A stretch of 63,991 bases of DNA, the filler included, from Asterionella formosa (taxonomy: Eukaryota), in the NCBI GenBank assembly GCA_002256025.1. It is 18 parts of 18 records of this genome, joined end to end, with 100 filler letters (N's around TTAATTAATTAA, not from the genome) between each part and the next. Parts side by side here need not be neighbours in the genome. Positions count along the whole stretch, not along the records: positions 1 to 30,099 come from NKIB01000902.1; 17 more parts are not named here. The stretch is one strand, 5' to 3'. Positions 2,158-51,493 of this stretch are shown here, one piece after another. Position 1 is the first letter of the stretch. Each line of letters begins with the position of its first letter. Below the pieces are notes generated by a model, which worked only from the letters and a program-made list of their open reading frames with translations, was not told the origin of the DNA and made no database searches. Position numbers and translations under genes: made by a program.

Positions 2158-3696
2158 TTACTTCAAATACGTTTCAATCACATTTGCAATATCTTCCTTC
2201 CCTGTCACTGCCTCAAAGTCAAAGTCCTTCCCAGTAATCATTTCATACAAGGTAATGTACCGTCTTGCCAACTCCAAAACCAACTCCCGAGGTGCTTCTG
2301 GCAATACTGCATCCGCATCGTAAGGGTCGCAATTGTCACGAAACCACAGTCTCAAAAATTCCTTGTCAATATTTTCTGGTTCCAATCCAGCCAACAGGCG
2401 CTCTTCATAAGTCGATGCCAACCAATATCGACTACTATCGGGTGTATGGATTTCATCAATGAGCAATATTTCTCCTAATGATACTGAGTCAGAGTCATTC
2501 ACATGTTTACCAAATTCATATTTGGTATCCACCAAGAGCAACCCATGAGACAATGCCACCTCTTGTCCACGAGCAAATAATTTCAATGCTGCCTCATGAC
2601 AAATATCAAAGTCTTGTTGTGTCATCCATCCCTCCTCCACAACATCCTTGGGTGAAATGGGTCGATCGTGATGCTCTTCCTTGGTGGTGGGAGTTAGAAT
2701 GGCCCCACCTGGGAGGGATTGGTTCTTTACCATGTCGTCCTTCAAGGTATATCCACAATAGTCCCGTGAGCCGGCTTGATAATGCTTCCAGATGGATGTG
2801 TCTGTTGACCCTGTCAAGTATGCTCTCACAACAAATTCAATAGGGAATGGAGTGCATTTTTTGACGATACTAACATTGGGGTGTGGGACATGGATCAGAT
2901 GATTTCCAATAATATCCTTGGTACAGTCACACCAAAAGGCGGCAGTCAAATTCAAGACAGCTCCCTTGAATGGTACAACAGCCAATTGTCTATCGAATCC
3001 TGATTGCCGATCGGTCGTTACGAGTGCCAATGTCGTGGGACCTACATATGTGTCGCGGACCTTGCCAGAAACGGTGGGGTTGTTGGTTGTAACGATTTGT
3101 TGATGAGTATCAAAGCAAGTGGCAATGGTATCCAAATAATAGGGCGATTGAGTGTTGTATTGAGCATCCATGGCAAGGTGAGACAGTCTCGCTACTTGCA
3201 TGGCCTGTTGAATACAGCGCCGAGTTGTTTCTGATGCGAGGCCGCAATGTTTGGCAATAGCGAGAGCTGTGGCTTCGTTGTTGTTGTTGTTGTTGCTGCT
3301 GCTGCCGCTGAACGGAATGGTGAGGACAGGAGCTGGTGTCTCTAGAGCAGTAAATGCAGTACCAGCATGAGTACTACCGGTAGTCAAGTGCACAAACAAC
3401 ATGGGTGCGTCCGTAGCAAGGAATCGATCGAGAGGCACTCGAGCCGATCGCACTGAAACGTGCTTGACTGAGAATTTGGAAGACAGTAGCTGACAAACTT
3501 CATTAGCGCCCATTTGTTGCTCTTGGCTTTCGATGAGGAGGATGACTTTCATTTCGTTTGTCGTTCCAGCCACTGATGGGTGTTGTGTAGGATATCCTAG
3601 TAGTAGTAATTGCATGTACTCCGTACTTGAATTGAATTGTGGCCAACTCTGGGTAGTGATTGATGCTGGGTCGTCGTCGTTTGTCTGTGCATGCAT
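2158..3696 (-). CDS. purC: SAICAR synthetase (PurC/Ade1) with an N-terminal degenerate PurE-like domain; true start may be Met at 3552
   Basis: Motifs GKVRD, TTDRQSGFDR..PFKGAVLN, PIEFVVRAYLTGS, LTPTTK, LLVDTKYEFG, DEIHTPDSSRYW, ENIDKEFLRLWF. Uninterrupted ORF. Confidence 0.93.
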   Translation of the reverse strand: MHAQTNDDDPASITTQSWPQFNSSTEYMQLLLLGYPTQHPSVAGTTNEMKVILLIESQEQQMGANEVCQLLSSKFSVKHVSVRSARVPLDRFLATDAPMLFVHLTTGSTHAGTAFTALETPAPVLTIPFSGSSSNNNNNNEATALAIAKHCGLASETTRRCIQQAMQVARLSHLAMDAQYNTQSPYYLDTIATCFDTHQQIVTTNNPTVSGKVRDTYVGPTTLALVTTDRQSGFDRQLAVVPFKGAVLNLTAAFWCDCTKDIIGNHLIHVPHPNVSIVKKCTPFPIEFVVRAYLTGSTDTSIWKHYQAGSRDYCGYTLKDDMVKNQSLPGGAILTPTTKEEHHDRPISPKDVVEEGWMTQQDFDICHEAALKLFARGQEVALSHGLLLVDTKYEFGKHVNDSDSVSLGEILLIDEIHTPDSSRYWLASTYEERLLAGLEPENIDKEFLRLWFRDNCDPYDADAVLPEAPRELVLELARRYITLYEMITGKDFDFEAVTGKEDIANVIETYLK

Positions 3697-5249
3697 CGCT
3701 CACAGATGAATCACATTTTTTTATAGACTGCATATAATGCAATATATTAGGCATATGACATGCAATCTGCCTACCGGGTATACCTACATTTTATGCACAT
3801 ACCGGGTATTCATGTATACCTGTATCGGTCGTCCTTGGTCGGAGACAGAGTTCAAAATGATCATATCCATTCATTTTTCGGTTCTGCGGTCAAACAGCAT
3901 TCTAGCTACCGGTAGCAGTGGTCTACCGGTTGTTAGTATGTACTCCGAGTACCGGTACTGGAACTGTTACAGGAAGAAAAGGTTCCCTGATGAACACTCT
4001 CACTCAGACGAATTGAGCTTGCTTGTTGACCATCTTGTACCAGGTACCAGGGTACCACCATTGTACAAGCTAGTACTACAATCCTAGTCATTACCATCAC
4101 CACTATACACTCGAAACGCTAGCCTGCTACCAATAAAAGTAGGGTAAAGCTGGCTTGATATATAACAGTAACAGATTCAAGCTGCTAGTAGCAACTACCT
4201 GAGGAGCCTAACTACATAGTTCACTCTGGAGTGCTGATTATGAGGGGGTTGGTCCCTCCTTGCTATCAGGTAGCTCCTCCTAGCTACCTCCTGCTACCAG
4301 CATATATTGCCCCAATACTACTTTTAGATGCATCATTGCTTGCTGCTGCTGATTCCTGATTCACCAGAGCAAGAAGATGAAGAAGAAGCAGCATTGAGCA
4401 ATGAGGCAGCTATCCTATAGTTATATTCTTAAAGATATACTAGCATTGTACTATTGCCCGCCCTACTTCACTGCAGTACTAGGGAATGTAGGCTACAGTA
4501 CAGTCATCACTTATTATGGTCTGAATAAATGATCAGGGGGCAGCCATGGGGATTGAACAATGATGAACCAAGTTCTCAAAAGTTGGTTGAGGAGTTCTAT
4601 TTGCACATTACTAACATGTATGTTCACAGATTTAGATGAACTCTTACCCAGTAGCTTTATTAGCAATGATGTACTCCGTATCTTTATCCTATACAGTATA
4701 TTTAATTTTTTAAAGCCAAATGACCGCAACTTGCTGGTACGACCAGCATTTACATTCAATGACATGTACAATAGATACATAGTATTGAGTAGAAAGGATT
4801 GCTTCTACGGACGATGGACAGCCGCTGATACTGGTACTGAAAAGATCCAACACAAAGATATACATATATTTAAATAAATGGCATATCTAAGATATAACTC
4901 TAGATATTTGGATGATATATTACCGGCATATTTTATTCACTCTAAGATCGCATCGTCATTTTGCTAAATATCACCGTACCCGGTAGATTGTTTGGTTCCG
5001 CCCTTGCTATGCTCTGCCTGTGACAGTGCATGTCATAGTATCCATAATTTCCATTTAATCGTCGTCCCTGTTCTCAATGAAATGAACGACAAGCACAATA
5101 GCTAATATCTTTATGATTCCTGGGATTATATTAATGATAGCATCCTTCCTTCACAATCTTTCGACCTAATCTACCAGCACGGCGTATGTTGAGGCGAGAA
5201 TCCATTGAACCACACACACACACACACAAACACACACACATCAGTCAGT

Positions 5250-6809
5250 ATGGACATGACGCAGAGGAGCATGACTAGTGACAATGACGGCCAAAACGAC
5301 GACGACGACGACAGCACTGACGAAGAACACGAATTAGATCACGTTGCCAAACGACCTCGACGAGAATGGTCACCAGGACCTCAAGTTCCTCCGGCTCCGC
5401 CATCCACTCCGGCTTCGCTAGTCGAAGCTAGAACTCCCCATGGGCCCATTCCTCTCATTCCCTACATACAAAACGCAGACGCCTTGGAACGAGATCAGTT
5501 GGCCAGTGGAGAACTGGCGACGCCAGCTCCGACCAAAAGCAATGCAGCAGTCATGGCTAAAAACCAATTGGACGACTTTTATCAATGGACAGTGGGGAGC
5601 CGGTATGAACTCATCCGGATGTTGGGAAGAGGCTCCTATGGACAAGTAGCTCAAGCCAAGGATCTTTGGGACGACAACAGGTTGGTTGCCATTAAACGAA
5701 TCGCCAGCGCATTTGAACAAGAGGTGGATGCAGTTAGATTGTATCGAGAAATACACATTTTGACACAATTGCGGGGTCATGATTGTATTATTCGATTGTT
5801 GAATGTCATCGAGCCAGAATCGCTGGAGCAATTTACCGACCTGTACCTTGTCTTTGAATGTGAGTAATACAGCCATGCTCGGTACAGTATTCCCATGGAT
5901 CAGTCATGATTGCCGCAGGTAGATATGATTGATGATAAACTCTTTCCTCACTTCATGCATTCTCTCCTTCTTGGATTAGATGTTGATACCGATTTGTACA
6001 AACTGATCATGTCGCCCCAGTATCTAACAACAGAGCACATTCAGGTAACCCACAATTTTACAAGAGTTGTAATAAATTGTTTGCATATCATCCATCCAAC
6101 TCACTCCTGTTTTGTCAACTCGGTATTAGACCTTTCTATATCAAATGCTAGCTGGACTCAAGTTTATTCATTCATCCTCAGTGATTCATAGAGATTTGGT
6201 ACGTGCATGATATGGCAACTTCCAATGTTTACACTTGCATAATAAAATGGAAAGCACCTTTCTTCACTCACGCGGTCTTTCTTTTGTTGGGAATTCCTCA
6301 GAAACCAGCCAATATACTATTGAATGAGGATTGTTCGCTTAAGGTAGGATCAAAACAAAACAAAAACTGTTCAAACACTGCATCTCGTTGTGCATAAAAC
6401 CGTTTTCTCGGTGGAGACATTTCTATCTCTCTCTCTCACACACACACACACATGTATTTCTATCGTCATTTTTAGATTTGTGATTTTGGATTAGCAAGAA
6501 TCGTCGACACATCTAGCATGAGTCAGGGTGCTGCTGCTGCTGCTTCTGTTCCAAATGGTAATTTGAGAATAGGACAGCTTTCTCCGGTACGTTAAAATAT
6601 AATGCAGCAGAACATTTAGTACTAAGACCATTTGAAGCAGAATGAGCTTTGTATCTAACACATCACCTTCTAACAAAATAAAACAAAACAGAAAGGAGAG
6701 TTAGAAACAAACGAGGTACAAGTTGATAAGGAAGGGTTGTGTTCAACTCCAGTAAGTAGTTTGTCCGTCAACAATGAATAGTGAAACATATTTTTTCTAC
6801 ATGGCATCG

Positions 6810-6840
<31 letters not shown>

Positions 6841-7671
6841 AGGGGCGCTATCTCATCCTTTATTCTTTAATTACAATAAGAAACGAGGATTAACACGTCA
6901 ACTTACCAAACATGTCGTGACACGATGGTACCGAGCACCTGAACTAATCTTAGTCCAACCCTATACGTCTGCGGTTGATATTTGGAGCATTGGGTGTATT
7001 TTGGCTGAGCTGCTAAGTATGCAGGAAGGTAACTATCAAGATCGATCCCCGCTCTTCCCTGGAGGATCCTGCTACCCATTAAGTGGCAAGGAAGACGGCG
7101 GTGAAGATGATCGTCTAGACCAATTGAATGTCATCCTGGAAGTACTTGGTACACCAAATGCAAAAGAATTGGAATGGGTCGGAACGAAGGTAAGCACAAA
7201 AATTTGTTTACCGAAAGTTTTTATATTCATAGTCCCTTCAAGACACCGCTCATAGACACTTGTTTTTGTACTACTGCACTCTCTCTTAACCAGGGATTGG
7301 ACTACATCAATGGATTGGGTCCCAAATCAAGTAAAACATTTGAAACCATGTACCCCGTAGCTGACCCTGGAGCCATTGACCTACTCCGCCAGATGCTTCA
7401 CTTCAACCCTAAAAATCGAATCACAGCAAGTGAAGCATTAGAGCATGATTTTTTCAAGACAGTCCGACGAAAAGAGTTTGAATTGGATGGTGCTGCTTTG
7501 GAGGGACCAGCCTTTCTTGAAGCCTCAACAGTTGACTTGGAAACACTTCGACAGAAGACTTTTGAAGAAGTGATGTGGTATAGCAAGCAAAACAGTGGCC
7601 AGGAAAGGACAATGAATCATGAGGTTGCTGTCATCAATGGAAAGGCAACCCATGGAGGTGAAAACATGTAA
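5250..7671 (+). CDS. Atypical MAP kinase with T-K-H activation motif; 8 exons: 5250-5859, 5980-6044, 6130-6198, 6302-6343, 6476-6586, 6692-6751, 6881-7189, 7294-7671
   Basis: GT-AG splicing joins in frame [82 protein letters not shown] and [10 protein letters not shown]. Boundaries of exons 5-6 are less certain. Confidence 0.9.
6812..6840 (+). repeat. G29 homopolymer in MAPK intron 6
   Basis: Directly visible run of 29 G followed by AGGGG. Confidence 0.9.
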
Positions 7672-8219
7672 GAGGGAGCAAAATGTACATTTGTGTTGTT
7701 GAACTTCGAACTTGCAGTTCAGTTAAGGTTTGAAGCACCAATTGTGTGCATCCAACTGTCCATGTTGGAGCTCAAAAACATTTTTGTGATTTGTATGTCA
7801 CCCAATAATTAAACTGTATGATGATGGACTGTGTAATTGATGTGTACTGATGACTTGCCATTGATATGGTCTAATAGGTGGCTTCTCTACTACATGTCAA
7901 GTTTTCCATCATGTTTGTAATGACACATACACAACAAACACACACACACACACTTACCAGTAGAGTAGTGCATTTACATGTTTCGGCCATTTCGTAAATG
8001 ACACATATGGAAATACTTATTCTCTTGCTTCTGCTACTCCTGCAAAATTCCTAACTCCTCCAACCCCAATGACAGCATTCCTGAAACCCTCTGGGTTGCT
8101 CCAAATACTCTACATCGCCATTCCATGTTTCCTAGGTATGTCTGTTCTGGCGTTACAATCGGCGAAAAGTGCCACATCACTGCTAACATGCATGCATGTA
8201 GGTGAGGAAATGTGATCAT

Positions 8220-8545
8220 GGTACCTGGTACCAGGTACCAGGGTTCCAGGATACTACCGCTATACAGTGCCGGTACCTGGTACCAGTAGCAGGTACCGGT
8301 AGTCTAGTACATAAAGTAGGATGTCATGAGCCAGCGATGCGATGACCAAATCCAGCGATATCGTATCATGCTCTATGTATGTACTCCGTACCTAGTACCA
8401 TGTACCACAGAAATATTGAACATGTGCACAACAATAATATTTCAAAATGACTCCGTGCTGACGTCATGCGTCGCTGCACCACATTGTACCACTACCATAG
8501 ACCTACTGGTACCAGGTACCAGGTAACTCGTACCAGTACCAGTAT
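8220..8545. repeat. Cluster of palindromic (CCAGGTA/TACCTGG)n and TACCGGTA micro-repeats; similar clusters at ~796, 4037, 11195-11535, 23300, 23562, 31293, 31694, 44690, 44940
   Basis: Perfect palindrome GGTACCTGGTACCAGGTACC at ~8220 and many variants, almost all intergenic. Confidence 0.85.
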
Positions 8546-8638
8546 ACAGCACAAGATCAGATTCATTCCATACATCAACGGTATCATGTTTTATAAATAT
8601 ATTTTATGATATTTTTCATCCTGTAGCTATCCGTCCTC

Positions 8639-11051
8639 ATGTCATCAAGCCGATCGTCATCTACTCGCAGTTCGACCCCGTCGAAGCTGTCCCCGCCTCT
8701 GCTTCGGCAAGCACTTCGCTTGATCCATTGCTTGCAAAAGGAGCGAGGGGCGTCGTCCGCGTACAGCGTGTCGAGTCAGTTCTTATCCAACATGGAAGCT
8801 GCTCGCCAGCAGTCCGATGTGGCGCTGCTGTTATTTGCCAGGAAGGATCCACGGCTGCGCATTGCGACCACATTGGGTAAAATAAGAGCTCAGCTAGACG
8901 AGAATAACGCAGCAGCCGAGACGGACGAGGAGGAGCTCCTCATTACCAAATTCCATCGCATCCTTGTCTTGTTCAACACTCTCATTGGGTCTGTTGTGCA
9001 CACTTACATCTTGCAGCATGTCAACAATTCGACTTGCAGAATTCAAGTAAATGCTGCTGCTACGTCAAAAAATCAAATTATGAAGAGATCCAGCAGTGTG
9101 GAGAGCTTCGTTCCCTGCAAGGTCCCTCCTTTGCCTTCGAGAAATCCGAGAAATTCAAGTGTAGGGACTTTTGGCGACGTGAAAAACCTCGGGTGGACAC
9201 CAAAGCCCAACGAGAGTTTTAAGGAGGAACCTGCAACCGCTATCGGTCAGTCACCGAAATCTGCAGCTAGGAATGGATCGCGTCGAAAAATTATTAGTTT
9301 TGATGCCAAGACGATGGAGAGCTTTGTCAGACCAGATCCAGCGACCTGCTTGCTGAATCTATTGAGCTGCTTTGTTAGACTCAAGGAAAGCACCGGACTA
9401 GAGCGAGCGCTTTTATCGGGTATGCTTTCCATTGGAGCCGTGCATCCGAGACTACTGGCGGACTTAATTCTGGAAGTGGAGAATCAGTCCTCATTGGTGG
9501 AGGAACTGAGAGAGCAAACCATTGCGGAAGCATCGCTGCTTCAGTTGATTCGAGAAGGTGTGATACTACCACAGCAACTTCAAGAACTACAACAACAAAT
9601 TCTTCAAAGATTCAATCTATCTGGGATACAATTGCCATCCACTCAATCTGTCTGGAATATCATTACTGTATACATGGATCGACTGCACTCATTAGAGCTA
9701 CTGTTAATTGAAGAATTAGAATCAGCGCTAGCAACGAGCCCATCGCTCTCGGTGGAGCCTCCAAGATTAGAAGACACGCCTGCTATTCTACAGTCCATCC
9801 TCCGAGACTTGTACTGGGAAGACTTACCATCGGAATTAATAAAATCCAAACTCCTTGAATATATGGGAAGAAATGCGTCATCGTCGAATAGTATCATTGA
9901 TCGAAACATCCCGGGTCCCATTAGTCGCACCGAAACACAGTCATCGTTCGGCAACGAAGTAGCGCAAGAAAAATCTGAATGGGACATTAACCTCTATGAA
10001 ATTCAATTTCAAAAACGAATTGGCCGCGGCACAGCAGGGACGACGTACCTTGCTCTGTGGTCAGGCCAAGAAGTTGCTGTTAAGGTTGCTGCTATAACTG
10101 AAATGGGGTTGGAAGGGTGGAAGACCGAAACAGCATCGCTTCAGAGATTGCATCATCCCAATATTATCCGCTTACTTGGCAGTATCTACAACCCGTCCCC
10201 CCTCACGTATTGTTTAGTATTGGAATATTGCAATGCTGGAGATCTAGGGGCTGCTCTCTTACAGCCAGCACCATCCAACTTTTTTGATCGCGTTAGCAAG
10301 GATATGGCAAATGGATTAGCATTTCTTCATTCACGAGATGTGATTCATCGAGATATAAAGGTACGTTTGCCTCATGTTTTTCATTTTTTTGGTCTCGCCC
10401 TAACCACTTTTTTGGCTCACATTTTGCCATGGCCTCCATATGTACTACTACTATCAGCCTGCCAATGTCTTGTTGCATGGAAATGTAATTAAGGGTGAAT
10501 TTTCTGCCAAAGTAACAGATTTTGGTGTAGCTACCAACCAAACGTTCCATGGGACAAACCGAACCGCCGAAACAGGCACGTACCGATGGATGGCCCCAGA
10601 GGTGATTCGCCACGAGTCCTATACCGAGACTGCTGACGTTTACTCCTTCGCTGTTGTTTTATGGCAGTTGATAACTAGAGAAGATCCATTTTTTGATAAA
10701 TCGCCAATTGAAGCTGCAGGAAAAGTCGCCTTGGAGTTGGCGCGACCCGAGTTTCCAAGGGGCACGCCAGTATCTGTGTCAACTCTGATTCAATGTTGCT
10801 GGAATGAAGACCCCCATCGTCGTTTAGGCTTTGAGGATGTTTTAAAACAATTGTCACTCGTGGAGCTTAGTGAGTCTGAACGAATGTGGCTGCAAGAACC
10901 ATTTGGACATCCAATCTACAATATTAAGGAAGACCCAGAATTAGCTGCCGGGAGTAATCAGATTCCATTAAGATTACCATTATTAGAAGGGATATTGGAG
11001 GCCAATAAGCCAGTAAAGAAAGGGTTGAGGAAATTTTTCTCAAAGAAATGA
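8639..11051 (+). CDS. NIT (nitrate/nitrite-sensing) domain fused to a TKL/Raf-like protein kinase; exons 8639-10360 and 10458-11051 (~771 aa)
   Basis: NIT signatures LIHCLQKERGAS, FVRLKESTGLERALL and VWNIITVYMDRLHSLE. Kinase motifs GRGTAG, VAVK, HPNII, HRDIK|PAN (joined across a GTACGT..TATCAG intron), DFG, TAETGTYRWMAPE and DVYSFAVVLW. No obvious transmembrane segment. Confidence 0.88.
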
Positions 11052-11633
11052 TTGCAAGTGTTGAACGCTCGACATGAAATGTTTTTGTAAAAGTAAGTGA
11101 CTGCTATTTGAAATGTAATTTAAATTCGGAGATGGTAAATTCCACACAAGAAGCAGTCGAATTTTACTCGCCGGAGCCATCAAGTGAGATATCAGGTACC
11201 AGGTACAGTGCATTACAAGTCTGGCAGTAGTACCGGTACCACCGGTGGTACCAGGTACCAAGCACAGCAGTGTACCAGGTATGGTACCTGGTACCAAGTA
11301 ACCAGGTGCAGGATACGACAGCAACAACAACAACCCCCGTTCGTGTCCTCCTCCTCCATCAGCATTTCCTAAAATTATTGGCTGAGCGCGCGATGGGTAT
11401 GATAAAATAATTAATATCCTGACCTTGCTTGCTCGTTTCACTTCTGAGCATCAAAAGTGAATATCAGGTACCTGGTGGTACCAGGTGTAATATACCGTAG
11501 TAAGCCCAGGTACCAGAAACCTGGTACCAGGTACAATTTGTACCGCACCAGTAGCATAAGTCAGAGGATCGTTTGCCATCACCATCATAGCTACGACTAC
11601 TAATAATCAGTTGACTGTGACCATTCCATCATC

Positions 11634-14600
11634 ATGGCACCTCCTCCTCCTCGCTCTCGAGGTCGCCGACAGCGCACCGCGACCAAGCACTACACAGACG
11701 ACGATCCTGCCACATTTACAACGAAAGGATGTGAGGGCGGTGGCGTGATTGCCTCGTCGTCGTTGCTTCCGTCGTCGCTTCCATTGTCGCCATTCCTGAA
11801 GCGTTCCGGTGCCAGCAAGAAGCGCAAACGGCCGTCATCGTCACCGGATCAGCAACAGCAGCAGTATTATTCTATTACGCACACGGGTCGCTGCAGGCCC
11901 ATCGTGGAGGAGGAGTCAACAAATTCGACACCCAACAACGTCCGAATCAGTGAGGCTATTTTTGGCCGTGGCCTTGGTCCGCCCCCAGTGCTACCAAAGC
12001 CGCATTGGCAGTCTGTAGTGGCGGCCGGTAACAACATCACCTGCATCGGTCTCTCGGCAGATGAGTCCTATCTTGTGTTGGGACATGCCACTGGACAAGT
12101 AACTCTGTTCACCGCGACGCCTCGGTTGCTGGCCGTGGCGACCATTCGAACACTGGCACTGGTCAGGGAGGAGCAGAAACGGTCAGTGTCCTCATTATCT
12201 GACAACAACCAACATCACCATGAACAGAACAACAAAGTGGGAAGCAGAAAGTACGGCAAACAACGACTATTACATGATCATGAGGTGGAACTAGTGGCAA
12301 TAGCCATGTCGTCGGCGAAGTACGTAGTTCTTGCCACTCGCTTGGAATTGGAATGTTGGGATGCCGAGACCAACACATGTAGGTGGACACTGGCCCTAGA
12401 CGAGAATCAAGTACTCCAATGTCACGCCTTGGACATTCACTCCACGTCGAATCAAATATTGGCAAGTACTCTCATGACTCCTGCAGCAATAGACGCGGAA
12501 TCATCGCCGTTGTGTTGGCTGGACGACATGGCCAATAAAATAACTTTTCTGCCAATTGACAAGGAAGGAAATTCTATTCAATTTCACACCAAATGTACGG
12601 CCATTTGGGACAAGAGTCGTCCACACAGATTCTTGGTTGCTGGAGCAGTAGGCAACAGCATTATGCTGTTGCTCATTGATACTTCGACCGAAAACTCTAC
12701 TACTACCACTCAAGTCGTACAACAAGTTCAATTGCCACACAAAATGATCAAACAATTGAATGTGGAATCCTTGGTGCAATCACCAAATGGATCCTACACA
12801 CTCGTTGGATCAACTCGGGGGATACGACTTTTGGAAACTGACACGCTTGCAACACTTCAGGTGTATGGGGATAATTTTTCATTGCATGGACATTCCATCA
12901 TTTGGCAAACGGCATTCTTTCTTACTAAACAACAACAAAAACATACCAATAGTGAAAGTGGAAACAATAGCATCCATACTACTACAACAACAAGAACTAC
13001 TACTACTAATAAGAATGACGAGACAGAATGGAGGAATCAATCATCCGTATGGATTGTGGGGGTTCCCAACCGAAATCGACCACCGGCAGAATTGCACAAT
13101 GTATTACATATATGGGATGTTTTAGAGGGCAAGCATGTGGCACAAACGATGACAGGGCCAAATAAATGTGGCGGATTTACAAACATTGTACAATTCCAAA
13201 ATGGAACAGCACTATTGGCTGCAGTCAAATCAGGGGAATGTGTGACACTACAACAAACATTTCAAACAGACTTTGCTGGTATCATGTATCCACCAGGATA
13301 TCATATTATTGATGATAATTTAGAATACATTGAAGATGAAGATGAATGTGATATTATTATATCACCACAGCACCAACAACTAAAACAGGAAATACTGTCC
13401 AATGATAGCGACAATGATGACCATGATGATGTGGAAGCAGGAGACTTGGCCATGGCGATGCGATTGAGTATTTTAGAACAGCAGCAACATGCAGAAGAAG
13501 CAGAAGATGTTGATATACTCCATGATGGACTTGACAGCATCATGGTACCCTGTCGACCAGACATGACTCGACAGAACAACAACCAAACTATGGACGACAA
13601 CGATATTGATAAAGAAGAAGCGGGAGTTTCACCCAGTCGGCACTTGAAACATTTTGAGGAGGCAGCATCCTTCTTGGCCAATACGATGAAAAATATGCCA
13701 CATTGGAATGTTATGTTGACAGCTGAAAATAAATCATTCACCAAGGAAGAACCATCCGTAGACATTAAGCCAATGCCTTCACAAACAGTGCGCCAAAAAC
13801 GAACCAAAGCAGCAACATTGGAAGCACTTCGCCGAGCATCTTTGAATCCTAAATTGCGCAAGACTATGATTGCTATGGAATTATGGACTCAAGGGAAAGG
13901 GTCATCCCTGCAGCCGCCAGTGCAACAACAACAAGGTGACATCACAAACCAAACGGTTCACGTTGTTGATTCAAATATACAGGTCCATGTTAGCAGGTTG
14001 GATGGTTCCATCAACTCCATTCCCAAACTTGTGTCGCCATTAGATGGTGAATATCATGCTTTGGCTCCCGCAACGAAACCATGTAATGTTCCTTCAAAGT
14101 TTTATGGTACCGTTACTGGGCCGAAGGATACTAACCACTATGGGCATGTGCTATTGGGGAATAGTAGCCATGAGGAGTCTACAGGATTACCCCTTTTTCT
14201 GGATGATCTCCAAGGACTTGGAATGGACAGTGCGAGGCATAATTCAGGAAGCAACTGCATTGCATGCAGAGGAAGATGGGTAATTCATACTTGTGGAAAG
14301 CGTATAATTCCTGTTGACTATGACGAAGTTAAGCGAGCAGAGGAGGAACAGAAGTACCGGCAAGAAGAGGAATTAAAAAAAGAACGTGCAGCAAAGAGAA
14401 AGGTGGCTGATGCAAAGAGACGTATCATGAAAAAGAAAAAGAGGGCAGAGGAAGAAGCCATACGTATTAAGAAAGATGACCTACAACAACAACTGCTGCA
14501 GGATGAACGCAAACAAGAGGCTGAGTATCGTCGTCAGCATCACCCGCATCAAAACAAGGAACAGCGAAGGGCAGAAATGCTAGAACGCCTTCAACATGTC

Positions 14601-15593
14601 ATGGACGACGATCAGACTAGTTTTAGTCAACAACTGACCGCAACAGAGGCTTTTTTGAAAGCTCCAATTCAACAGGAGCATGAATCTAACTATACTTCAC
14701 TTGACCCACCGTTTCGACCATGCCATCTAGAATCTGTCCCCTTGACATCTTCTCCAGCTGTTGCGTCATTTTATCAGGATGAGCCATCATATCAACAGTC
14801 AACCACAGAATATTCAAATTTACCATATCCAGATGAGTCCGCTTATATTTCAGCATCCCCGCCAGTTACAACAGACGGAGTCGCGGTTTACGAGCAAATT
14901 CAAAGCGAGGTGAATGACGAGAATGCAGGTTCCCAGTCTGGGTATGAACAGGAAACGTATTCCAATGCTGAACTTTTGCAGGCTGCCACATATACTACAG
15001 ATAACGCCACCTCTTATTCGGAATTTGATCCAATTCAAGGTCATGGATACAGCAATGACAGCAGTGTTTACTCTGATCACCAACAAGTACCTGCTTATCA
15101 TGATGCTAGTGCCTCATATTCAACACTGGGTACTCATGCAGAGTATTCCTACCAGCATTCTGCCTACTTGTCGGCAACAACAACAACTGCACTGAATAAT
15201 ATGACCCCCTCCAGTTACTCACGAGAGCCCTATGGAACGCCCCCCTCAGACCAGATGGATGCCATTGATGCCTTAGCCGCACTGGCAAGTGTTGCAACTT
15301 CACGCAGTTTAGAATCATCAACTGGGAAAAATGGAATGACTTCATCACATCAACTGGAATTCACTATTAATAGTAGGAACAACAACTCCTATCACGATTA
15401 CAATTCAAATGAAAATCACACTGATGAAGGGGCAAGGTATCTCTCTGTGCAGAATGGATCATGGGAAAATGAAAATACCGCACTAGCATTCAGCAGTGGC
15501 ACAAATGGGCATGCCAATTTAGCAGATTCAGATGCAAAATCACAGTTTGCTGAAAGAAATCATGAGGGGTCAGATTCTTACCAGCAGAGATAG
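11634..15593 (+). CDS. RBBP5: Large divergent WD40 protein, RBBP5/Swd1-like (COMPASS subunit), with long low-complexity C-terminus
   Basis: 1319-aa ORF. WD-like N-terminal half (ITCIGLSADESYLVLGHATGQVTLF, LHIWDV) followed by FAGIMYPPGYHIIDDNLEYIEDEDECD, which resembles the RBBP5/Swd1 hinge (F.E..EN.EY.E.E.EFD), and an EDVDI segment like the WDR5-binding VDV motif. Confidence 0.65.
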   Translation: MAPPPPRSRGRRQRTATKHYTDDDPATFTTKGCEGGGVIASSSLLPSSLPLSPFLKRSGASKKRKRPSSSPDQQQQQYYSITHTGRCRPIVEEESTNSTPNNVRISEAIFGRGLGPPPVLPKPHWQSVVAAGNNITCIGLSADESYLVLGHATGQVTLFTATPRLLAVATIRTLALVREEQKRSVSSLSDNNQHHHEQNNKVGSRKYGKQRLLHDHEVELVAIAMSSAKYVVLATRLELECWDAETNTCRWTLALDENQVLQCHALDIHSTSNQILASTLMTPAAIDAESSPLCWLDDMANKITFLPIDKEGNSIQFHTKCTAIWDKSRPHRFLVAGAVGNSIMLLLIDTSTENSTTTTQVVQQVQLPHKMIKQLNVESLVQSPNGSYTLVGSTRGIRLLETDTLATLQVYGDNFSLHGHSIIWQTAFFLTKQQQKHTNSESGNNSIHTTTTTRTTTTNKNDETEWRNQSSVWIVGVPNRNRPPAELHNVLHIWDVLEGKHVAQTMTGPNKCGGFTNIVQFQNGTALLAAVKSGECVTLQQTFQTDFAGIMYPPGYHIIDDNLEYIEDEDECDIIISPQHQQLKQEILSNDSDNDDHDDVEAGDLAMAMRLSILEQQQHAEEAEDVDILHDGLDSIMVPCRPDMTRQNNNQTMDDNDIDKEEAGVSPSRHLKHFEEAASFLANTMKNMPHWNVMLTAENKSFTKEEPSVDIKPMPSQTVRQKRTKAATLEALRRASLNPKLRKTMIAMELWTQGKGSSLQPPVQQQQGDITNQTVHVVDSNIQVHVSRLDGSINSIPKLVSPLDGEYHALAPATKPCNVPSKFYGTVTGPKDTNHYGHVLLGNSSHEESTGLPLFLDDLQGLGMDSARHNSGSNCIACRGRWVIHTCGKRIIPVDYDEVKRAEEEQKYRQEEELKKERAAKRKVADAKRRIMKKKKRAEEEAIRIKKDDLQQQLLQDERKQEAEYRRQHHPHQNKEQRRAEMLERLQHVMDDDQTSFSQQLTATEAFLKAPIQQEHESNYTSLDPPFRPCHLESVPLTSSPAVASFYQDEPSYQQSTTEYSNLPYPDESAYISASPPVTTDGVAVYEQIQSEVNDENAGSQSGYEQETYSNAELLQAATYTTDNATSYSEFDPIQGHGYSNDSSVYSDHQQVPAYHDASASYSTLGTHAEYSYQHSAYLSATTTTALNNMTPSSYSREPYGTPPSDQMDAIDALAALASVATSRSLESSTGKNGMTSSHQLEFTINSRNNNSYHDYNSNENHTDEGARYLSVQNGSWENENTALAFSSGTNGHANLADSDAKSQFAERNHEGSDSYQQR

Positions 15594-16048: not shown

Positions 16049-18446
16049 GGGCCAATCTTAACAGAGAGGATACAAAAATCAAAAAAATGTTGCTCGGCCC
16101 AATTTTTTGTATCTCGCATATCTGGGTGATATGTTGCTTCCAGCAACACATTTTTTGTTGCTCCGAAATGTGTATCGCTGCAGATACAGCGTTAAGCAAC
16201 ACTAATTTTATAAATTTAATACATGTCATGTAATTAAATTAATCAGCAAAGACACCATTTTTATCTCTAACGGCAACAACAGAAATGAATTTTGGGAGGA
16301 GGGATTCTCGGCAGCAACTATTATTGTCACTAGCTGCTCATGGAATAATGCTTTTCATCACTTGTAAACAACTTGCGCAATGGCATCATTTGAATCTTTG
16401 GACATTGAAACATAATCTGCAGCAAGGAAACAGGATGACCAGTGGGTTGCAAGTATCACTCCTGCTGATTTTTTCATTGACAACGAAGAGTCTTTGACAA
16501 CGATAAAAGACATGCTCATTCAACAGATATCGCTACAACGACTTCGTCGTATTTGCACACTTGCCTCTCAAAGTTCCAATGCAGAATTTTTTCGAGCAAC
16601 TTTTCTTGTAAAACGAGAGAAGGAACATTATGGATGGTGTAAGTATGTACCGCGAAAAGTTAAAGGAAGCTCAAACTGAAGTAGCAAGCAATGAAGTGTC
16701 ACAAGCATGTGATGTTAAAGAGTATCAAGAGAATGTCAGTTTAGTTGAATATTTTTAAGTCAACCTTTTTGAAGCTATGGATGCACTGAACAAGAATTCT
16801 GTAGCTCTCTTACAAACAGCTGAAGAAAATGCATCTAATCATAATTAGGTTAACAATTATATTTCTACTTAGTTCTTGTTATTTCCTAATTCCTTCCAGT
16901 TGTAGTTGTATGCTACATTAATCCTATTTCAGTCAGTTCACACCATCGGCGCAACACATCAGCCGGAGGTTGCATAAACCCATTGTTGGTGACAACATCA
17001 AGAATAATTTGCCAAATCTGTGAAGTACCTTGTACTACATCCAACTTCCTCACAGTTGGAAGATAAGCCCACCCAAGAGGAGCATTGGGCATTGGATCAA
17101 CAAGCTCCTAACTATTCAGAAATTCCTTTCCATTAGCAAGTTCCTTCTTTTTATCATCATCCATGAGTAGGTAAAAATTGTGTAAGTGGGCACAAGCAGA
17201 AAGAATTGTAACTGATTTCTTCATCCTGAAGGACAAGGATGTCCTCAGGATCCTCCATTTATTGGTGAGCAATCCAAACGTCATCTCAATTCTGTGAAAG
17301 GAGATAGTTGTATGCATCTTTGTTTGTTGATTCCCTTTGACTTCCAACAAATGGACAGAGCACTTGATCAATCAATGTGTAAGCAGCATCACCTACTATG
17401 TATTGTCCTGGAAGAAGGTTGGATACAATCTGAAAAAGTTTTGTTCTTTCGAATGCCTTCTGATCTGTACATTTTCTTGGTGGTGCTATGACACCAAAGT
17501 ATAGGAAACAACAATTGCTGTCACAAACAGCTTGAACATTCAATCCATATGACATATAATGCCCAGACCAATATGCTTGAGGGAAGCCATAACAATCCTT
17601 TTTTCTTGGTTTAGAAATAGGCTGTAAATATCCATCTATAGCACCAATGCATCCACGAAATGGTTGCTGCTCGCTTTTTTCAAGGAATCCATTCATCACT
17701 TTGTGTTTCTCCTTGTTCGTTGTAGGGAATTTTATTGATAACGCTGTGCAGGAGTTCACCGCTTCAAGCAATGTGTTAGTGATGGCATAAACAGATGGAT
17801 AAGAAACTCTATAGACATGACAAATGTCCATGAGGTTTCCGCCTGCAAGCCAGCGAAGTCCAATGGCAAGGATCAACTCAGGATAAATGTGCTGATTTGG
17901 GCTGTATAAACCGGAACTTGCATTTGATTTTACAACATTAACTGTGATGGAAGGTCGAAGGAGTTCCAGTAGTTGATTGAAAGATTCAAGAGACATGCGA
18001 TATTCACGATGAAATCTGTTCTCATGAAGAAGCTTTGTGACATGTCCATTCCAGTCAATTCGTTGATGCTCCCATTTTGGAATTCGCACTGGCTTCGATT
18101 TTCGTTCACAGGACTCCAAAAATGATAATGCAACTGCTGCAATTAATAAAAAGCTTTCTTACTCCACTTTTATATCAAGATTGTCAATGACATCCCTACT
18201 GTCAGGTTCTTCCGGTCAATTTGTCATTGTCGTTACAGTAATGATAATTGTCAGACACATTGAATAATTGAAGTGCACATTAGAAGTATTTTTGCCGAGT
18301 CTGATGCACATGTTTGCAGAGGCATAAAGAAAACGGCTAACTGTTTTGCCATTACAGAGATATATTTGTGAAATGTATCTCTGTAAAGATTCATTTTTTT
18401 CTGAAGATACAACAAAAATAATTTGTATCTCTGTTAAGATTGGCCC
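16049..18446. mobile_element. PIF/Harbinger DNA transposon, 2398 bp, intact termini
   Basis: TIR GGGCCAATCTTAACAGAGA at 16049 and its reverse complement ending at 18446. TTA target-site duplication at 16046-16048 and 18447-18449. Encloses a Harbinger transposase. Confidence 0.93.
17108..18119 (-). pseudogene. Harbinger (DDE_Tnp_4-like) transposase, frameshifted near 17290
   Basis: FHREYRMS..F, LAIGLRWLAGG, CIGAIDG, LNVQAVCD and VGDAAY in one frame; RIEMTFGLLTNKWRIL..ACAHLHNF in another. No in-frame ATG at the 5' end. Confidence 0.88.
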
Positions 18447-20063: not shown

Positions 20064-22646
20064 TTATAAATCTGCAGGGACTGAACCATTGAATAAATTG
20101 TTGCTCAAAAGTAGGCTATTGAGACTTGTGTTAAGTCCAGGCCATATCACAGCTGGCACTGTACCTGTGAGAGTATTGGAGGACAATAACAGTTCAGTGA
20201 GACTTGTCAAGAGTCCAATCTCTGTGGGAAGTGAGCCAGAGAAAGTGTTATAGGATAAATCTAGAGCAGTGAGACTTGTTAAGAGTCCAATCTCTGTGGG
20301 AAGTGTGCCAGTGAATGTATTGGAGTACAATAACAGTTCAGTGAGACTTGTCAAGAGTCCAATCTCTGCGGGAACTGTGCCATTGAATGTATTGTGGGAC
20401 AAATCTAGACCAGTGAGACTTATCATGAGTCCAATTTCAGTGGGAAGTGTGCCAGTAAAAGTACTGTAGGAAAAAGATAGACCAGTTAGATTTGTCAAGA
20501 GTCCAATTTCAGTGGGAAGTGTGCCATTGAAAGTGCTATAGGACAAAAATAAATCAGTGAGACTTGTCAATAGTCCAATCTGTGTGGGAAATATGCCTTT
20601 GAATGTATTGGACAAATCTAGACTAGTGAGACTTGTTAAGAGTCCAATCTCTGTGGGAAGTGTGCCAGTGAATGTATTGGAATACAATGACAGCTCAGTG
20701 AGACTTGTCAAGAGTCCAATCACTGTGGGAACTGTGCCATTGAATGTATTGTAGGACAAATCTAGACCAATGAGACTTGTCAAGAGTCCAATTTCAGCGG
20801 GAAGTGTGCCAGTAAAAGTACTGTAGGAAAAAGATAGACCAGTGAGACTTGTCAAGAGTCCAATTTCAGTGGGGAGTGTGCCATTGAAAGTGCTGTAGGA
20901 CAAATATAAATCAGTGAGACTTGTCAATAGTCCAATCTCTGTTGGAACTGTACCGTTGAATGAATTGGAGTACAAAGATAGACCAGTGAGACTTGTCAAG
21001 AGTCCTAGCTCTGTGGGAAGTGTGCCAGTGAATGTATTGGAATGCAATGACAGCTCAGTGAGACTTATCAAGAGTTCAATCACTGTGGGAACTGTGCCAT
21101 TGAATGTATTGTGGGACAAATCTAGACCAATGAGACTTGTCAAGAGTCCAATTTCAGTGGGAAGTGTGCCAGTAAAAGTACTGTAGGAAAAAGATAGACC
21201 AGTGAGACTTGTCAAGAGTCCAATTTCAGTGGGGAGTGTTCCATTGAAAGTGCTGTAGGACAAATATAAATCAGTGAGACTTGTCAATAGTCCAATCTCT
21301 GTTGGAAGTGTACCATTGAATGAATTGGAGTACAAAGATAGACCAGTGAGACTTGTCAAGAGTCCAATCTCTGTGGGAAGTTTGCCATTGAATGTATTGT
21401 GGGACAAATCTAGACCAGTGAGACTTGTCAAGAGTCCAATCTCTGGTGGAAGAGATCCTACAAGTTGAGAATAAGAAGGGGACAAATCTTTGATATCTGT
21501 CCCACCTTTACAATCTATTCTTTCCCAATCACAAAAATTGTATTGATAAGCAGTTCCATTAGTTTGCAACCATGCATTGATTGAAAGGGTTTCACCAGTG
21601 GCATAATAAAAAACTGCCAAGGCATACAATTGCAAAACAATATAGTCTGTGGCACTATTATATAGTGTCGACTGCTCCAACCACGCCAGTGCCTTTTGTT
21701 GTGAGGAGCCAGTAGTTGAAAGTGCTGTCCCATTATCAAATGAATGTACAGCCAAGAACCTAGCCAAGCTTTGAGACGAGCTTGCTGATGGATTATGTGA
21801 TGGTGTCAATGATGGAATACTGAATAGAGTTTCTGATGGAACCAATGATGGACTCGTAGAAACTGTAGTTGATGGACTTGGTGATAGACCTGCATTAGTG
21901 GCTGGAATAGGTGTAGTAGGACCCATTCCTAAAACCAGTGGAGTTGTAGGTGGTGCTGAAGTATTTGGTTCCGGCCTGGTGAAAACAACGGCAAGAACAA
22001 CTACAGTAACTAATAAGCAAGTCACCACAAATGCTGCCAACACTATCCACCCTTGACGGTTATGACACTGAGTTTTTCTTTCTGCTTCATAGTCAACAAT
22101 AGAGGCACTTGGAATTTCAGGATCATCTACAAGAACCGCATTGAGTAGTGTTGCAGGTACCTCGTTGGTGGCGCGAGCAGTGTCGATATCCAAAAGGGAA
22201 TCTTCGTGTGGAATGAATCCTGGTCCACTTACTGGAAATGCACCAGGACGAGATTGTTGTTGTGGTGCTGCCACAACATCTCGAGGCGGAACAAAGATAT
22301 GAGAGGAATCGTTGTCATCTTGAGGCAGAACTGAGGAGATTTCCTGCAGTGTAGTGGTGGCTTCCTGGTCATGGTCTTCCACTTTCGCCTCCTCTGCAAA
22401 CGGGACACCTTTGCTGGATTCAACTGAATTTTTCTTGGCATCTTGATGCACTTCTGCCGAATCCTCCAATACAGTGGCTTCCAGCTCTTCTTCTTTAGCC
22501 ACTTCTGCAAAAGGATGAGCATCGAGGCCAGCAGTTGCAAGAGAAGAATCAGACATTTTGGCAGAGACACCATTACTATCATTTGGATCCTTCTTCTTCC
22601 CCCGTCCACTAACACCATTCGTCTTGTTCTTGTTGCTTGACGGCAT
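20064..22646 (-). CDS. Type-II membrane LRR receptor-like protein (diatom-type), ~20 plant-like 24-aa LRRs
   Basis: Cytoplasmic N-terminus with PGAFPV motif, TM WIVLAAFVVTCLLVTVVVLAVVF, S/T/P stalk, QQKALAWL / QLYALAVFYYATG / CDWERIDC cap, then LxxLxLxxNxFxGTLPTEIGLLTS repeats. Confidence 0.9.
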   Translation of the reverse strand: MPSSNKNKTNGVSGRGKKKDPNDSNGVSAKMSDSSLATAGLDAHPFAEVAKEEELEATVLEDSAEVHQDAKKNSVESSKGVPFAEEAKVEDHDQEATTTLQEISSVLPQDDNDSSHIFVPPRDVVAAPQQQSRPGAFPVSGPGFIPHEDSLLDIDTARATNEVPATLLNAVLVDDPEIPSASIVDYEAERKTQCHNRQGWIVLAAFVVTCLLVTVVVLAVVFTRPEPNTSAPPTTPLVLGMGPTTPIPATNAGLSPSPSTTVSTSPSLVPSETLFSIPSLTPSHNPSASSSQSLARFLAVHSFDNGTALSTTGSSQQKALAWLEQSTLYNSATDYIVLQLYALAVFYYATGETLSINAWLQTNGTAYQYNFCDWERIDCKGGTDIKDLSPSYSQLVGSLPPEIGLLTSLTGLDLSHNTFNGKLPTEIGLLTSLTGLSLYSNSFNGTLPTEIGLLTSLTDLYLSYSTFNGTLPTEIGLLTSLTGLSFSYSTFTGTLPTEIGLLTSLIGLDLSHNTFNGTVPTVIELLISLTELSLHSNTFTGTLPTELGLLTSLTGLSLYSNSFNGTVPTEIGLLTSLTDLYLSYSTFNGTLPTEIGLLTSLTGLSFSYSTFTGTLPAEIGLLTSLIGLDLSYNTFNGTVPTVIGLLTSLTELSLYSNTFTGTLPTEIGLLTSLTSLDLSNTFKGIFPTQIGLLTSLTDLFLSYSTFNGTLPTEIGLLTNLTGLSFSYSTFTGTLPTEIGLMISLTGLDLSHNTFNGTVPAEIGLLTSLTELLLYSNTFTGTLPTEIGLLTSLTALDLSYNTFSGSLPTEIGLLTSLTELLLSSNTLTGTVPAVIWPGLNTSLNSLLLSNNLFNGSVPADL

Positions 22647-23584
22647 GCTCTTGTTGTGAATGGTCTCCAGGACGTCGAGAGAACAGAATTAATGGAGGAT
22701 ACATACATATATTGTAACAAGTACTGTGCAACACTATGTGTAGTAGGTACCGGGGTAGTCGTACCAGTTCAAATTTATATTACAGACAAGGACGGACGCG
22801 ATAGGGCCACGCAAAGAAGCAAGCGCCTACCGGTACTACAAATAAACTCGCAATCGAATCGAAGGAGTCGAAGCTGAGGAATTAATATACCCGGTAGTCT
22901 AAAAGCATCGCCAAGCCTTTCGCAATTAGTCTAAATCACCCACCCCAAGTCCCCCCCCCACGGCTGAGCGCAACTCGACTGCCGCAGAACCCAGAGGAAG
23001 GACACGGACCGAACCCGGAGCTAGGGAACGGGACACGTTACTTAGCAAAGAAATCAAAAAGCCATTTACGATATTTAGCTCATTCTTGGATCGCTATTCT
23101 ATTAGTCTACGGTTCGCTTTAGTCTTATTCCTATGACGTCTCTATGCCCCTACACAATAGACAGATGGAGAAAGACGAGACGGACGAGACGGACGAGATG
23201 GTAATTGTGTCGAAGTTACTTCGATTCCTGGGACAGCCGGAATCCCTTCTTATAACCCCAAATATATTCTTTTAGGGCAATTGCTTTGCCTGTACCTGTT
23301 ACCTGGTACCAGTAGACTACCAGTACCTGGTGAGCGATCTTGCGCATCAATACAGATGTATATAGGGTTAGTGATATATCATATATGCATAAGAACTCAA
23401 TAATGAGAGAACTCGACTAACCCTCATTGTATACTTTGGTGTCAACTTAGAGAACAAGTTACACACAAGGATTAACAAATAAGCTCATACATTCAACAAA
23501 TACTACTACTTCTTGTTAGATACTTCAACTGGTACCAGCACCACTACCGGTAGCCAGGGAGGGTACCAGGTACCAGGTACCTGG

Positions 23585-30099: not shown

Positions 30100-30713
30100 N
30101 NNNNNNNNNNNNNNNNNNNNNNNNNNNNNNNNNNNNNNNNNNNTTAATTAATTAANNNNNNNNNNNNNNNNNNNNNNNNNNNNNNNNNNNNNNNNNNNNT
30201 AATTATGTGAAGTATTTCAAATAATTATGTGAACGTGATCACATAATATAGTGATGATCAGGAATGCATGCATGATACTTTGATCAAATATTTAACGTGA
30301 TGTATTCAGATAATATATAGATATATTCAACTACGTATTTTGATGTATTCAACTAATTCATGTGATGCATTCAAAATCAACTAGGCTTATTTATGTGATG
30401 GTCACTTCACGTAATACGCGGCTTAGATGTATTAGACAGAGGGAGTACCTAAGGTCATCTCTATCACATCGACCAAATACCAAAGCCAATTGTATTGCAT
30501 TTGAAATTATCAAAACAAGTCACTTCTTTGAGAAATCTTTTATCAATTGTCGAATTTTTCATATTTTTCCCACTACCAAATACTAAAATAGTCAAATCTT
30601 GTGCCCAAACTTTTAGCAAACAGAAATAGAGCTATATTATCATATATGTGTATCACTGATACAGCAGTGATGGATACTACTACATAGCTATATATACACA
30701 AAATGAAACAACA

Positions 30714-31010
30714 ATGAGCAACAATAGTGACTCATCAGATGATGATTGCCTCTACTACCATTTCCGCAAGATGCATCGTCAACAAAGAAGTGAGAATGAT
30801 GCACAGAAAAGACAAAGTAGGGGAGGAGGTTCCAAGGTTGGTAAGGCTACTACAAACGTGAGTCGTTTTCGTGCAGAGTATGACAAGCTGTTGAAGAGAT
30901 CTACTCTCATGCACATTTCAGGAGGCACTTTGGGATGCGTTGTTCCTTATTTGAAAAGATTCCTTAAGATTTGGTTGAGGCAGACTGATCCATACTTTCA
31001 ACAGAAGAAG
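30714..31010 (+). pseudogene. N-terminal fragment of a PIF/Harbinger (Plant_tran-type) transposase
   Basis: RGGGSKVGKATTNVSRFRAEYDKLL, then in shifted frames FRRHFGMRCSLFEKI and DPYFQQKK, matching the usual RGGS..R..FRRRFRM...LF..I..D.YF.QK pattern. Confidence 0.6.
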
Positions 31011-31088
31011 GAAGTTTCTATGTCAGACGACTTAACGCAGTGATTTTCATGAAGATTTGGTTCAAATTGAATACGTAATTGTCATACT

Positions 31089-31520
31089 GCGAGATCTTGG
31101 GTTGAACCCATCCGAAATGGTTCTGGAATTTGTTCACTTAAATTACTACCAAATATATTTCATAGCTTTTTACTCGTCGCTGTTCTGTACAATATCGTTA
31201 CGAGGTAAAGCTCCGAATAATTATGTCAAATTTTCGCTTGTGATATGCGACATTCGCTGTCGCGTCGCGGAAGGGTTCCTACCAGTCTAGTATGGTACCA
31301 CGTACTCGAAGTACCAGGTACCAGCAGTCGATAAATGCAGGGACCGTCTGTATTCGTCAGACCACTACAAAAGGTAGGAGAGACAAAATTCATTTGTTAC
31401 AAATAATACGATATTTTGGGTTGAATTCATCCGAAGCGGTTCTGGAATTCTTGTACATAAATTTCTTCCGGTAAATACACCCCCAGCATTTTTCTCGTTG
31501 CTGTTCTTCTTTACAGTATC
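31089..31520 (+). repeat. Diverged direct repeat, ~110-bp units about 320 bp apart
   Basis: TTGGGTTGAA..CATCCGAA..GGTTCTGGAATT...CTCGT.GCTGTTCT..TACA.TATCG occurs at ~31098 and ~31416. Confidence 0.7.
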
Positions 31521-36092: not shown

Positions 36093-36192
36093 NNNNNNNN
36101 NNNNNNNNNNNNNNNNNNNNNNNNNNNNNNNNNNNNTTAATTAATTAANNNNNNNNNNNNNNNNNNNNNNNNNNNNNNNNNNNNNNNNNNNN

Positions 36193-42074: not shown

Positions 42075-42174
42075 NNNNNNNNNNNNNNNNNNNNNNNNNN
42101 NNNNNNNNNNNNNNNNNNTTAATTAATTAANNNNNNNNNNNNNNNNNNNNNNNNNNNNNNNNNNNNNNNNNNNN

Positions 42175-49700: not shown

Positions 49701-49726
49701 TGTAAAAGTATTTTGTGCAATGATAT

Positions 49727-51352: not shown

Positions 51353-51493
51353 GGTGATGAATCATGTCACCAATTGAATTCAACAATTTTAGTAAAACGT
51401 CAAGACAATAAGTTCAGTACCGGTACTCCGTACAGTATATATCTTACCGGGAACGTAGTAAACTATGGTCCAGGATTCCTTGATGAAGCTAAA

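Follow-up and report, generated by a model that had tools for sequence, protein, structure and literature searches.

Structure and expression of the locus

The window analysed here, by which we mean the whole stretch of 63,991 nucleotides from Asterionella formosa, contains at 8639-11051 a gene that is intact, expressed as RNA and spliced, and that encodes a soluble protein in which a NIT domain is followed by a protein kinase (Table 1). Its ATG opens a stop-free frame on the plus strand that holds both NIT motifs and the kinase N-lobe and runs to HRDIK, and the spliced product is 771 amino acids long. The complete kinase reported in the preliminary description is obtained only once the intron has been removed, an intron that the gene limits given there implied but that was not named. 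A hydropathy scan, which is not a trained predictor of transmembrane segments or signal peptides, agreed with the earlier claim that a transmembrane segment is absent, the highest Kyte-Doolittle mean over 19 residues being 1.58; among 85 family members, the maximum is at least 2.0 in two.

Table 1. Coordinates of the NIT-kinase gene and of its parts in the window
Feature	Positions	Strand	Basis
Coding part of exon 1 (aa 1-574), with NIT, the linker and the N-lobe of the kinase as far as HRDIK	8639..10360	+	ORF, Pfam, RNA contigs 8609/8610-10360 in X1 and X3
NIT first half (aa 19-144, four helices; LQKERG 8732-8749; R36 at 8744-8746, aligned to NasR R50)	8693..9070	+	Profile alignment, model, family conservation
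Insert splitting NIT, low-confidence, Ser/Pro-rich (aa 145-233)	9071..9337	+	Mean pLDDT of 42-55 per block for most of its length
Candidate phospho-site motif, hydrophobic-x-R-x-x-S-x-x-x-hydrophobic, S153 (aa 148-157)	9080-9109	+	Motif enrichment in relatives
NIT second half (aa 234-366; KESTGLERA 9383-9409; R256 at 9404-9406, aligned to NasR R176; W339)	9338..9736	+	Pfam, profile alignment, model
Linker (aa 367-447), predicted as a short helical hairpin with a disordered stretch after it	9737..9979	+	Model of orthologue P0013, conservation profile
First part of the TKL kinase domain (aa 448-574), with Gly loop, K482, E497 and HRD	9980..10360	+	Pfam, PDB search, conservation
Intron, 97 nt, GT..AG	10361..10457	+	RNA joint, database protein P0206; intron-retaining contigs also in 3 of 4 RNA runs
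Exon 2, coding part (aa 575-771 and stop; kinase C-lobe with DFG and GTYRWMAPE to about 10859, then tail element 10887-10919)	10458..11051	+	Pfam, RNA

Seventeen RNA runs were listed, 15 of them with the stretch or part of it and eight, labelled as lake, freshwater or algal samples, with at least half of its words. The RNA evidence consists of assembled contigs from four runs, those with a small share (X11-X17) being left out. The splice joint was seen in all four of the runs, which come from three studies. Contigs of X1 and X3 begin upstream of the ATG and continue unbroken to the end of exon 1, so that a single RNA contig covers the two NIT halves together with the N-lobe of the kinase, while the link to exon 2 is a short joint contig with 28 letters on its shorter side and no listed single piece spans the whole gene. 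Taken together, the unbroken contig and the joint agree with the earlier expectation that both domains share one transcript. In the contigs of these runs, RNA cover is zero at 8300-8602, which argues against DNA carry-over. Additionally, a database protein of 720 aa (P0206), which belongs to the 90% cluster of the top match, agrees with the spliced product from M52 onwards without a single difference (720 of 720 positions), the splice junction included.

Intron retention is frequent in diatoms. Contig depth, a poor measure, was 43.5 for intron-retaining and 31.7 for spliced contigs in X1, 38.8 and 38.3 in X6, and 7.4 and 15.3 in X3, and no retaining contig is listed for X7. The retained intron would give a 617-aa protein that stops before DFG, that is, a NIT domain with a dead half-kinase. 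The position of the break, right after HRDIK, recurs in only five close relatives among the cluster representatives, and it is not a family-wide feature.

As for the neighbourhood, a multi-exon MAP-kinase-type gene (5251-7671, plus strand) lies upstream on the same strand and stops 968 bases before the NIT-kinase; it has Pkinase matches and a [12 protein letters not shown] segment, and a G run occupies about 6811-6840, where its activation segment should begin. Both flanks of the NIT-kinase gene (8210-8545 and 11190-11540) are rich in short palindromic repeats of the GGTACC/GTACCAG type. Downstream lies a 1328-aa open frame (11607-15593, plus strand) with weak beta-propeller matches (E 0.03-0.19) and a low-complexity tail. 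A SAICAR synthetase is found at 2158-3699 and an LRR protein at 20064-22688, and transposon remnants are present in 17286-18158, 27386-37739 and 48583-57177, among them a nuclease of the DDE_Tnp_4 type and several pieces of copia-type retrotransposons (domains RVT_2, SH3, gag-pre-integrase and protease region). A GC-rich (53%) block at 40459-43790 looks like a long inverted repeat, its two 555-aa open frames (40459-42126, minus; 42123-43790, plus) standing head to head around 42125 and both lacking a Pfam match; two consecutive 664-aa open frames at 58067-62052 (plus), which overlap by 4 bases and have no Pfam match, look like a tandem duplication. When the upstream MAP-kinase-type gene, the downstream open frame and the SAICAR synthetase were searched for in 80 loci, no tblastn match was found at 1e-8; the search is uninformative on synteny, as the majority of the NIT loci are short or resemble transcripts.

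The NIT domain

Pfam recognises NIT (PF08376) in two stretches with an E value of 2.7e-14 and a score of 54.6 bits, where the gathering cut-off is 24.9, and the kinase models PF07714 and PF00069 exceed their cut-offs in both exons, so the pair of domains proposed at the outset is borne out. Both half-site motifs lie where they had been placed (aa 32-37 and aa 249-257), as does the last NIT helix, whose W339 is encoded at 9653. A PDB search with the single NIT-region sequence gave no match at E up to 10, but a profile of 30 NIT regions retrieved NasR (4AKK; E 1.5e-7) as the sole match below 0.2, with both half-site motifs aligned. Once an offset of 27 is applied, the alignment positions of NasR carry the numbers that PMC7496416 gives to E175, R176, E191, R193, Q194, R199, D201, Q203 and Q204, and that paper places R176 in the predicted nitrate pocket. 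Since this numbering reproduces the named residues, R256 corresponds to NasR R176, and the same offset matches R36 with R50. R50 is probably a ligand residue of NasR as well.

An AlphaFold2 model of aa 16-370, built on an alignment of 95 sequences, is all-helical (pLDDT 83.9) with a low-confidence middle. It superposes on 4AKK with a Z score of 23.8 and an rmsd of 3.1 Å over 240 residues, the runner-up reaching 11.7, and Foldseek gives the same match an E value of 4e-4. The input to the model was an alignment of the family itself, and the fold match is hence silent on the ligand; the two pocket arginines are assigned by sequence alignment. The Pfam scan detected no haem-binding module and no ANTAR output domain, the place of the latter being taken by the kinase.

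Conservation was assessed on 85 full-length proteins, window included, which remained from 107 with a complete kinase and a NIT domain after removal of 21 same-cluster duplicates and of P0172, a degenerate long-branch row. R36 and E35 are kept in 84 of the 85, E250 and R256 in all, and W339 in 82. These pocket residues are thus near invariant while overall NIT identity drops to 25-35%, and the earlier proposal of a NIT domain with two candidate ligand arginines is upheld by the Pfam match, the NasR alignment, the model and this conservation alike.

The kinase domain

The catalytic motifs are intact (Gly loop, K/E salt bridge, HRDxKxxN, DFG and APE), and K482, E497, HRD, N577, DFG and E622 are each present in 85 of 85 proteins; DLG replaces DFG in the relatives P0022 and P0107. 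A tail element, W..GH..Y, follows the C-lobe, with W718, G724, H725 and Y728 kept in 79-84 of the 85. MLK1 (E 2e-43), CTR1, MLK4, TAK1 and DLK head the list of nearest solved kinases, which confirms the TKL type, while an NCBIfam scan gave kinase matches below threshold only. The preliminary description spoke of a MAP3K-like kinase. The likeness to MLK, CTR1 and TAK1, and to algal STY-type kinases with an ACT domain, stands, but MAP3K as a function is too strong, and from the sequence the term denotes resemblance only.

Distribution and evolution of the family

Searched with the NIT region, a set of 7471 candidates with lengths of 315-1005 aa yielded 84 homologues. According to precomputed domains, 64 have NIT and kinase, ten NIT only, nine kinase only and one neither, and none of the 84 bears any other output domain; in several of the NIT-only or short homologues, the gene call breaks off at an intron or at the end of a contig. 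An exhaustive search yielded 143 representatives, 48 of which were scanned with Pfam and showed NIT, kinase-type or no matches. Longer or differently fused forms (826-2355 aa) gave 17 matches, all of them kinase fusions, although only the 8000 candidates that shared most were scored, so that this is weak evidence of absence. The nearest Atlas cluster combines NIT and kinase in 56 members, with Haptophyta the commonest; an Atlas feature search also pointed, with low recognition, to NIT clusters of bacteria (0.89-0.91), which we regard only as a lead to the origin of the NIT half.

Named members come from Fragilaria crotonensis, Chaetoceros tenuissimus, Thalassiosira exigua, Amphora coffeaeformis, Triparma laevis and Conticribra weissflogii and, among haptophytes, from Chrysotila carterae (NIT region only) and Scyphosphaera apsteinii. 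Deposited diatom copies bear generic kinase names. Most matches carry no taxon, and "diatom" and "haptophyte-type" are therefore used here as clade labels anchored on few names. No match is named as Phaeodactylum, and none as Pelagomonas or another pelagophyte, although some of those lacking a taxon may be pelagophyte. The survey of orthologues thus finds the fusion conserved across diatoms, Triparma and haptophytes; the preliminary description missed the spread to haptophytes.

In quick trees, as all of ours are, the kinase and the NIT side both split the rows into 65 of diatoms and Triparma and 20 of the haptophyte type (99, starred), and both group the window protein, within a starred clade, with a protein that bears the name Fragilaria crotonensis. 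The two trees have 49 of 82 splits in common. The kinase tree repeats 31 of the 35 starred NIT-side splits, and none of the 35 is contradicted by a split starred in it; the two parts were thus inherited together. When 20 non-NIT kinases from metagenome loci, picked by a shared activation-loop pattern, were added to 41 of the 85 proteins, the 51 NIT-group rows lay on one side of a branch with a support of 83 (unstarred); three of these rows (L011, L012 and L018) are cut contigs in which no NIT was seen. On these sequences, a single NIT-kinase fusion is allowed. An ACT match was found in eight of the 15 non-NIT relatives scanned, three at or above the cut-off, and the algal non-NIT loci with an ACT and kinase layout are presumably of the STY/ACTPK type.

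Some relatives depart from the common layout. The nearest non-NIT kinases (L023:135-3314 and L025:1374-5147) have N-terminal regions of 700-900 residues without Pfam or NIT match. P0183 (1152 aa, from a three-member cluster) has the reversed order, with an N-terminal kinase and NIT at about 609-921, and is possibly an independent fusion. In the Conticribra cluster (P0224/P0222 versus P0226), complete 756-aa ORFs occur together with pieces of 595 and 152/160 aa, transcriptome ORFs that are split near the APE motif, for which a retained intron or an assembly error may account.

The diatom-specific insert

Between the two half-sites, diatom proteins carry an insertion of 30-350 residues, a feature that the preliminary description missed. 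The spacing from arginine to arginine is 151-464 residues (median 248) in the 64 diatom rows and 220 in the window protein, against 102-136 in the 20 haptophyte-type rows and 137 in Triparma, which lack the insert and have the same pocket residues. Rich in Ser and Pro, the diatom insert cannot be aligned, and its confidence is low in the two models, that of the window NIT region and that of the orthologue P0013.

Motifs were counted in the 57 inserts of at least 45 aa, eight short ones, including Thalassiosirales-type rows, being excluded. HxRxxS is present in 28 of the 57, compared with a shuffled mean of 2.5 (maximum 9 in 500 shuffles), and [HLMIF]xRxxS in 40, compared with 10.9. By contrast, neither R.[ST] (47 versus 49.3 of 65) nor S.D (39 versus 37.1 of 65) is enriched. 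The enrichment, though strong, is a lead, since HxRxxS was picked after viewing the alignment consensus, 11 + 9 patterns were tried and the rows are related by descent. The window protein lacks the His form and has the Met form of RxxS with a hydrophobic residue at +4. The hydrophobic form presumably resembles AMPK, SnRK1 and CDPK sites. HXRXXS is an NDR/LATS consensus, which has been tied to 14-3-3 binding (PMC4320110). Judged from these motifs, the insert is likely a disordered phospho-regulatory loop.

Proposed function and alternatives

Diatom nitrate sensing is considered an open question, in which a kinase trigger has been suspected but none identified (PMC6779911, PMC7408324). The NIT-kinase is a ready candidate for the sensing of internal nitrate, as it is conserved and soluble and has a nitrate-type pocket wired to an intact kinase. 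On balance, we think it probable that it is a cytosolic, nitrate/nitrite-gated one-component sensor kinase of diatoms. By comparison with NasR, R36 and R256 would hold nitrate and/or nitrite between the two halves of the NIT bundle, and the resulting helix shift would be passed on to the kinase domain, which probably packs against the NIT/linker region in a weakly modelled arrangement, and would change its activity. The direction would most likely be the release of an autoinhibited state, by analogy with NasR, which acts in this manner (PMC7496416). The active Ser/Thr(/Tyr) kinase may then phosphorylate nitrogen-assimilation targets such as transporters, nitrate reductase and their regulators, and the insert, to go by its motif enrichment, could supply a second input as a phospho-regulatory loop.

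The contact between the two domains was modelled in the orthologue P0013, whose full-length model has a pTM of 0.72. NIT plus linker (1-362) against kinase (400-700) gives an ipSAE of 0.57, while the best of three controls gives 0.00; the runs share at least 50% of contacts, and the partner pLDDT is at least 77. The ipSAE mark is reached by 51 of 78 solved pairs and by 2 of 108 mismatched ones. We grade the support for the predicted contact as weak, because scores of 0.60 or under comprise only 5 of the 78 solved pairs and all 4 passing mismatches.

The ligand is the point on which readings diverge most. Bacterial NIT domains bind nitrate or nitrite at low micromolar values, with a preference that varies between the two ions (PMC12358799), and this variation leaves room for a NIT domain that senses NO or its nitrite product as a stress or redox signal, or some other small anion, instead of nutrient nitrate status. 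In Platynereis, the NIT domain of NIT-GC1, the only eukaryotic one known to have been assayed, can gate an enzyme, and NIT-dependent cGMP appeared after addition of an NO donor, the only compound tested; its true ligand was left open, and its authors note that nitrate/nitrite could not be excluded (bioRxiv 2023.08.02.551600). The nitrate-induced genes of Phaeodactylum also include globins proposed to turn NO into nitrate (PMC6779911). We nevertheless consider the NO reading unlikely, as the motifs match those of the nitrate-responsive NasR residue for residue and no haem-binding module came out of the Pfam scan. It is rather improbable, in our opinion, that the domain binds nothing and serves as a structural or autoinhibitory scaffold, the kinase being ruled, like other Raf-like kinases, by phosphorylation of the insert and by 14-3-3-type partners. 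Non-binding NIT domains do exist (PMC13343842), such as that of PA4520, which binds neither nitrate nor nitrite (PMC6381276), and both the length of the diatom insertion and its strongly enriched phospho-motifs would suit such a scaffold. Set against this are the near invariance of the pocket residues in a domain whose overall identity has fallen so far, their retention in the proteins that lack the insert, and the model, which closes both halves into a NasR-like bundle around it.

That the fusion is itself an artefact of misassembly, read-through or two adjoining genes has a negligible probability. The genomic frame breaks after HRDIK and intron-retaining contigs are common, but NIT and the kinase N-lobe share one uninterrupted ORF, and dozens of relatives have the same fusion, some as complete transcriptome ORFs; the identity with P0206 and the splice joint in all four runs have already refuted it.

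If the nitrate/nitrite-gated sensor is real, a ligand-gated Raf-like kinase would operate in algae that dominate nitrate-driven blooms. To our knowledge, such a route is unlike the NRT1.1/NLP7 systems of plants. In a wider and doubtful extension, the NIT-kinases of diatoms and haptophytes would be direct intracellular nitrate/nitrite receptors, derived from an old fusion apart from the pelagophyte ones and placed at the top of a minutes-scale nitrate response; the phospho/14-3-3 loop inside the ligand domain would make the diatom form a coincidence detector of nitrate and energy or calcium status, and intron retention would tune the amount of active kinase.

Comparison with known systems

NasR of Klebsiella oxytoca, a NIT-ANTAR one-component regulator, is the best match to the window NIT domain in both sequence profile and fold, and has a cytosolic NIT bundle with both half-site motifs. 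Its output is the RNA-binding ANTAR, whereas that of the window protein is a kinase, and its arginine spacing (R50-R176, 126 residues) is like that of the haptophyte-type rows and Triparma, not the 220 of the window. Platynereis NIT-GC1/2 share with our proposal a eukaryotic NIT domain needed for control of a catalytic domain, but differ in their cyclase output, their predicted transmembrane region and the NO donor used to test them (bioRxiv 2023.08.02.551600).

The plant and green-algal Raf-like STY kinases with an ACT domain (ACTPK1 and STY46 type), like MLK, CTR1 and TAK1, are TKL kinases with the GTYRWMAPE activation segment of the window protein. They carry ACT where the window has NIT; the Pfam scan found no ACT match in exon 1 at E up to 1, and the NIT-kinases branch apart from these relatives at the unstarred support given above. 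Rice ACTPK1, in which a small-molecule-sensor domain is also joined to an STY kinase acting on nitrogen uptake, phosphorylates an ammonium transporter (PMC6760267).

The literature searched, with most subscription papers outside its scope, gave no report of a diatom or haptophyte NIT-kinase. Monteagudo-Cascales et al. (2023) reportedly treat NIT domains in eukaryotes and may already list diatom NIT-kinases. Other candidate nitrogen-sensing kinases are named in PMC7408324 and PMC6779911, in the searched parts of which no NIT annotation appears, and PF08376/IPR013587 is absent from the searched supplements of the latter, a Phaeodactylum nitrate study.

The closest precedent is Pelagomonas calceolata, in which Guerin et al. 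described two genes, e.g., Pca_1p31590, that combine NIT with a Ser/Thr/Tyr kinase and, like the window protein, have no transmembrane segment, and proposed a phosphorylation-based signalling of intracellular nitrate/nitrite (PMC9481584, PMC12054182). The novelty of architecture and of hypothesis implied in the preliminary description consequently does not hold. In that study, BLAST returned 60 homologues, only from pelagophytes, dictyochophytes and one putative cryptophyte, and Pca_1p31590 had its best NR match in a kinase from an oomycete (9e-33) (PMC9481584). The window's family spans diatoms, Triparma and haptophytes instead, and its diatom copies carry an insert that goes unmentioned in the available text on Pelagomonas. 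As far as that text goes, the diatom/haptophyte form is a variant of the architecture described in pelagophytes and, the idea being already in print, what this analysis adds is the lineage, the evidence for conservation and the insert.
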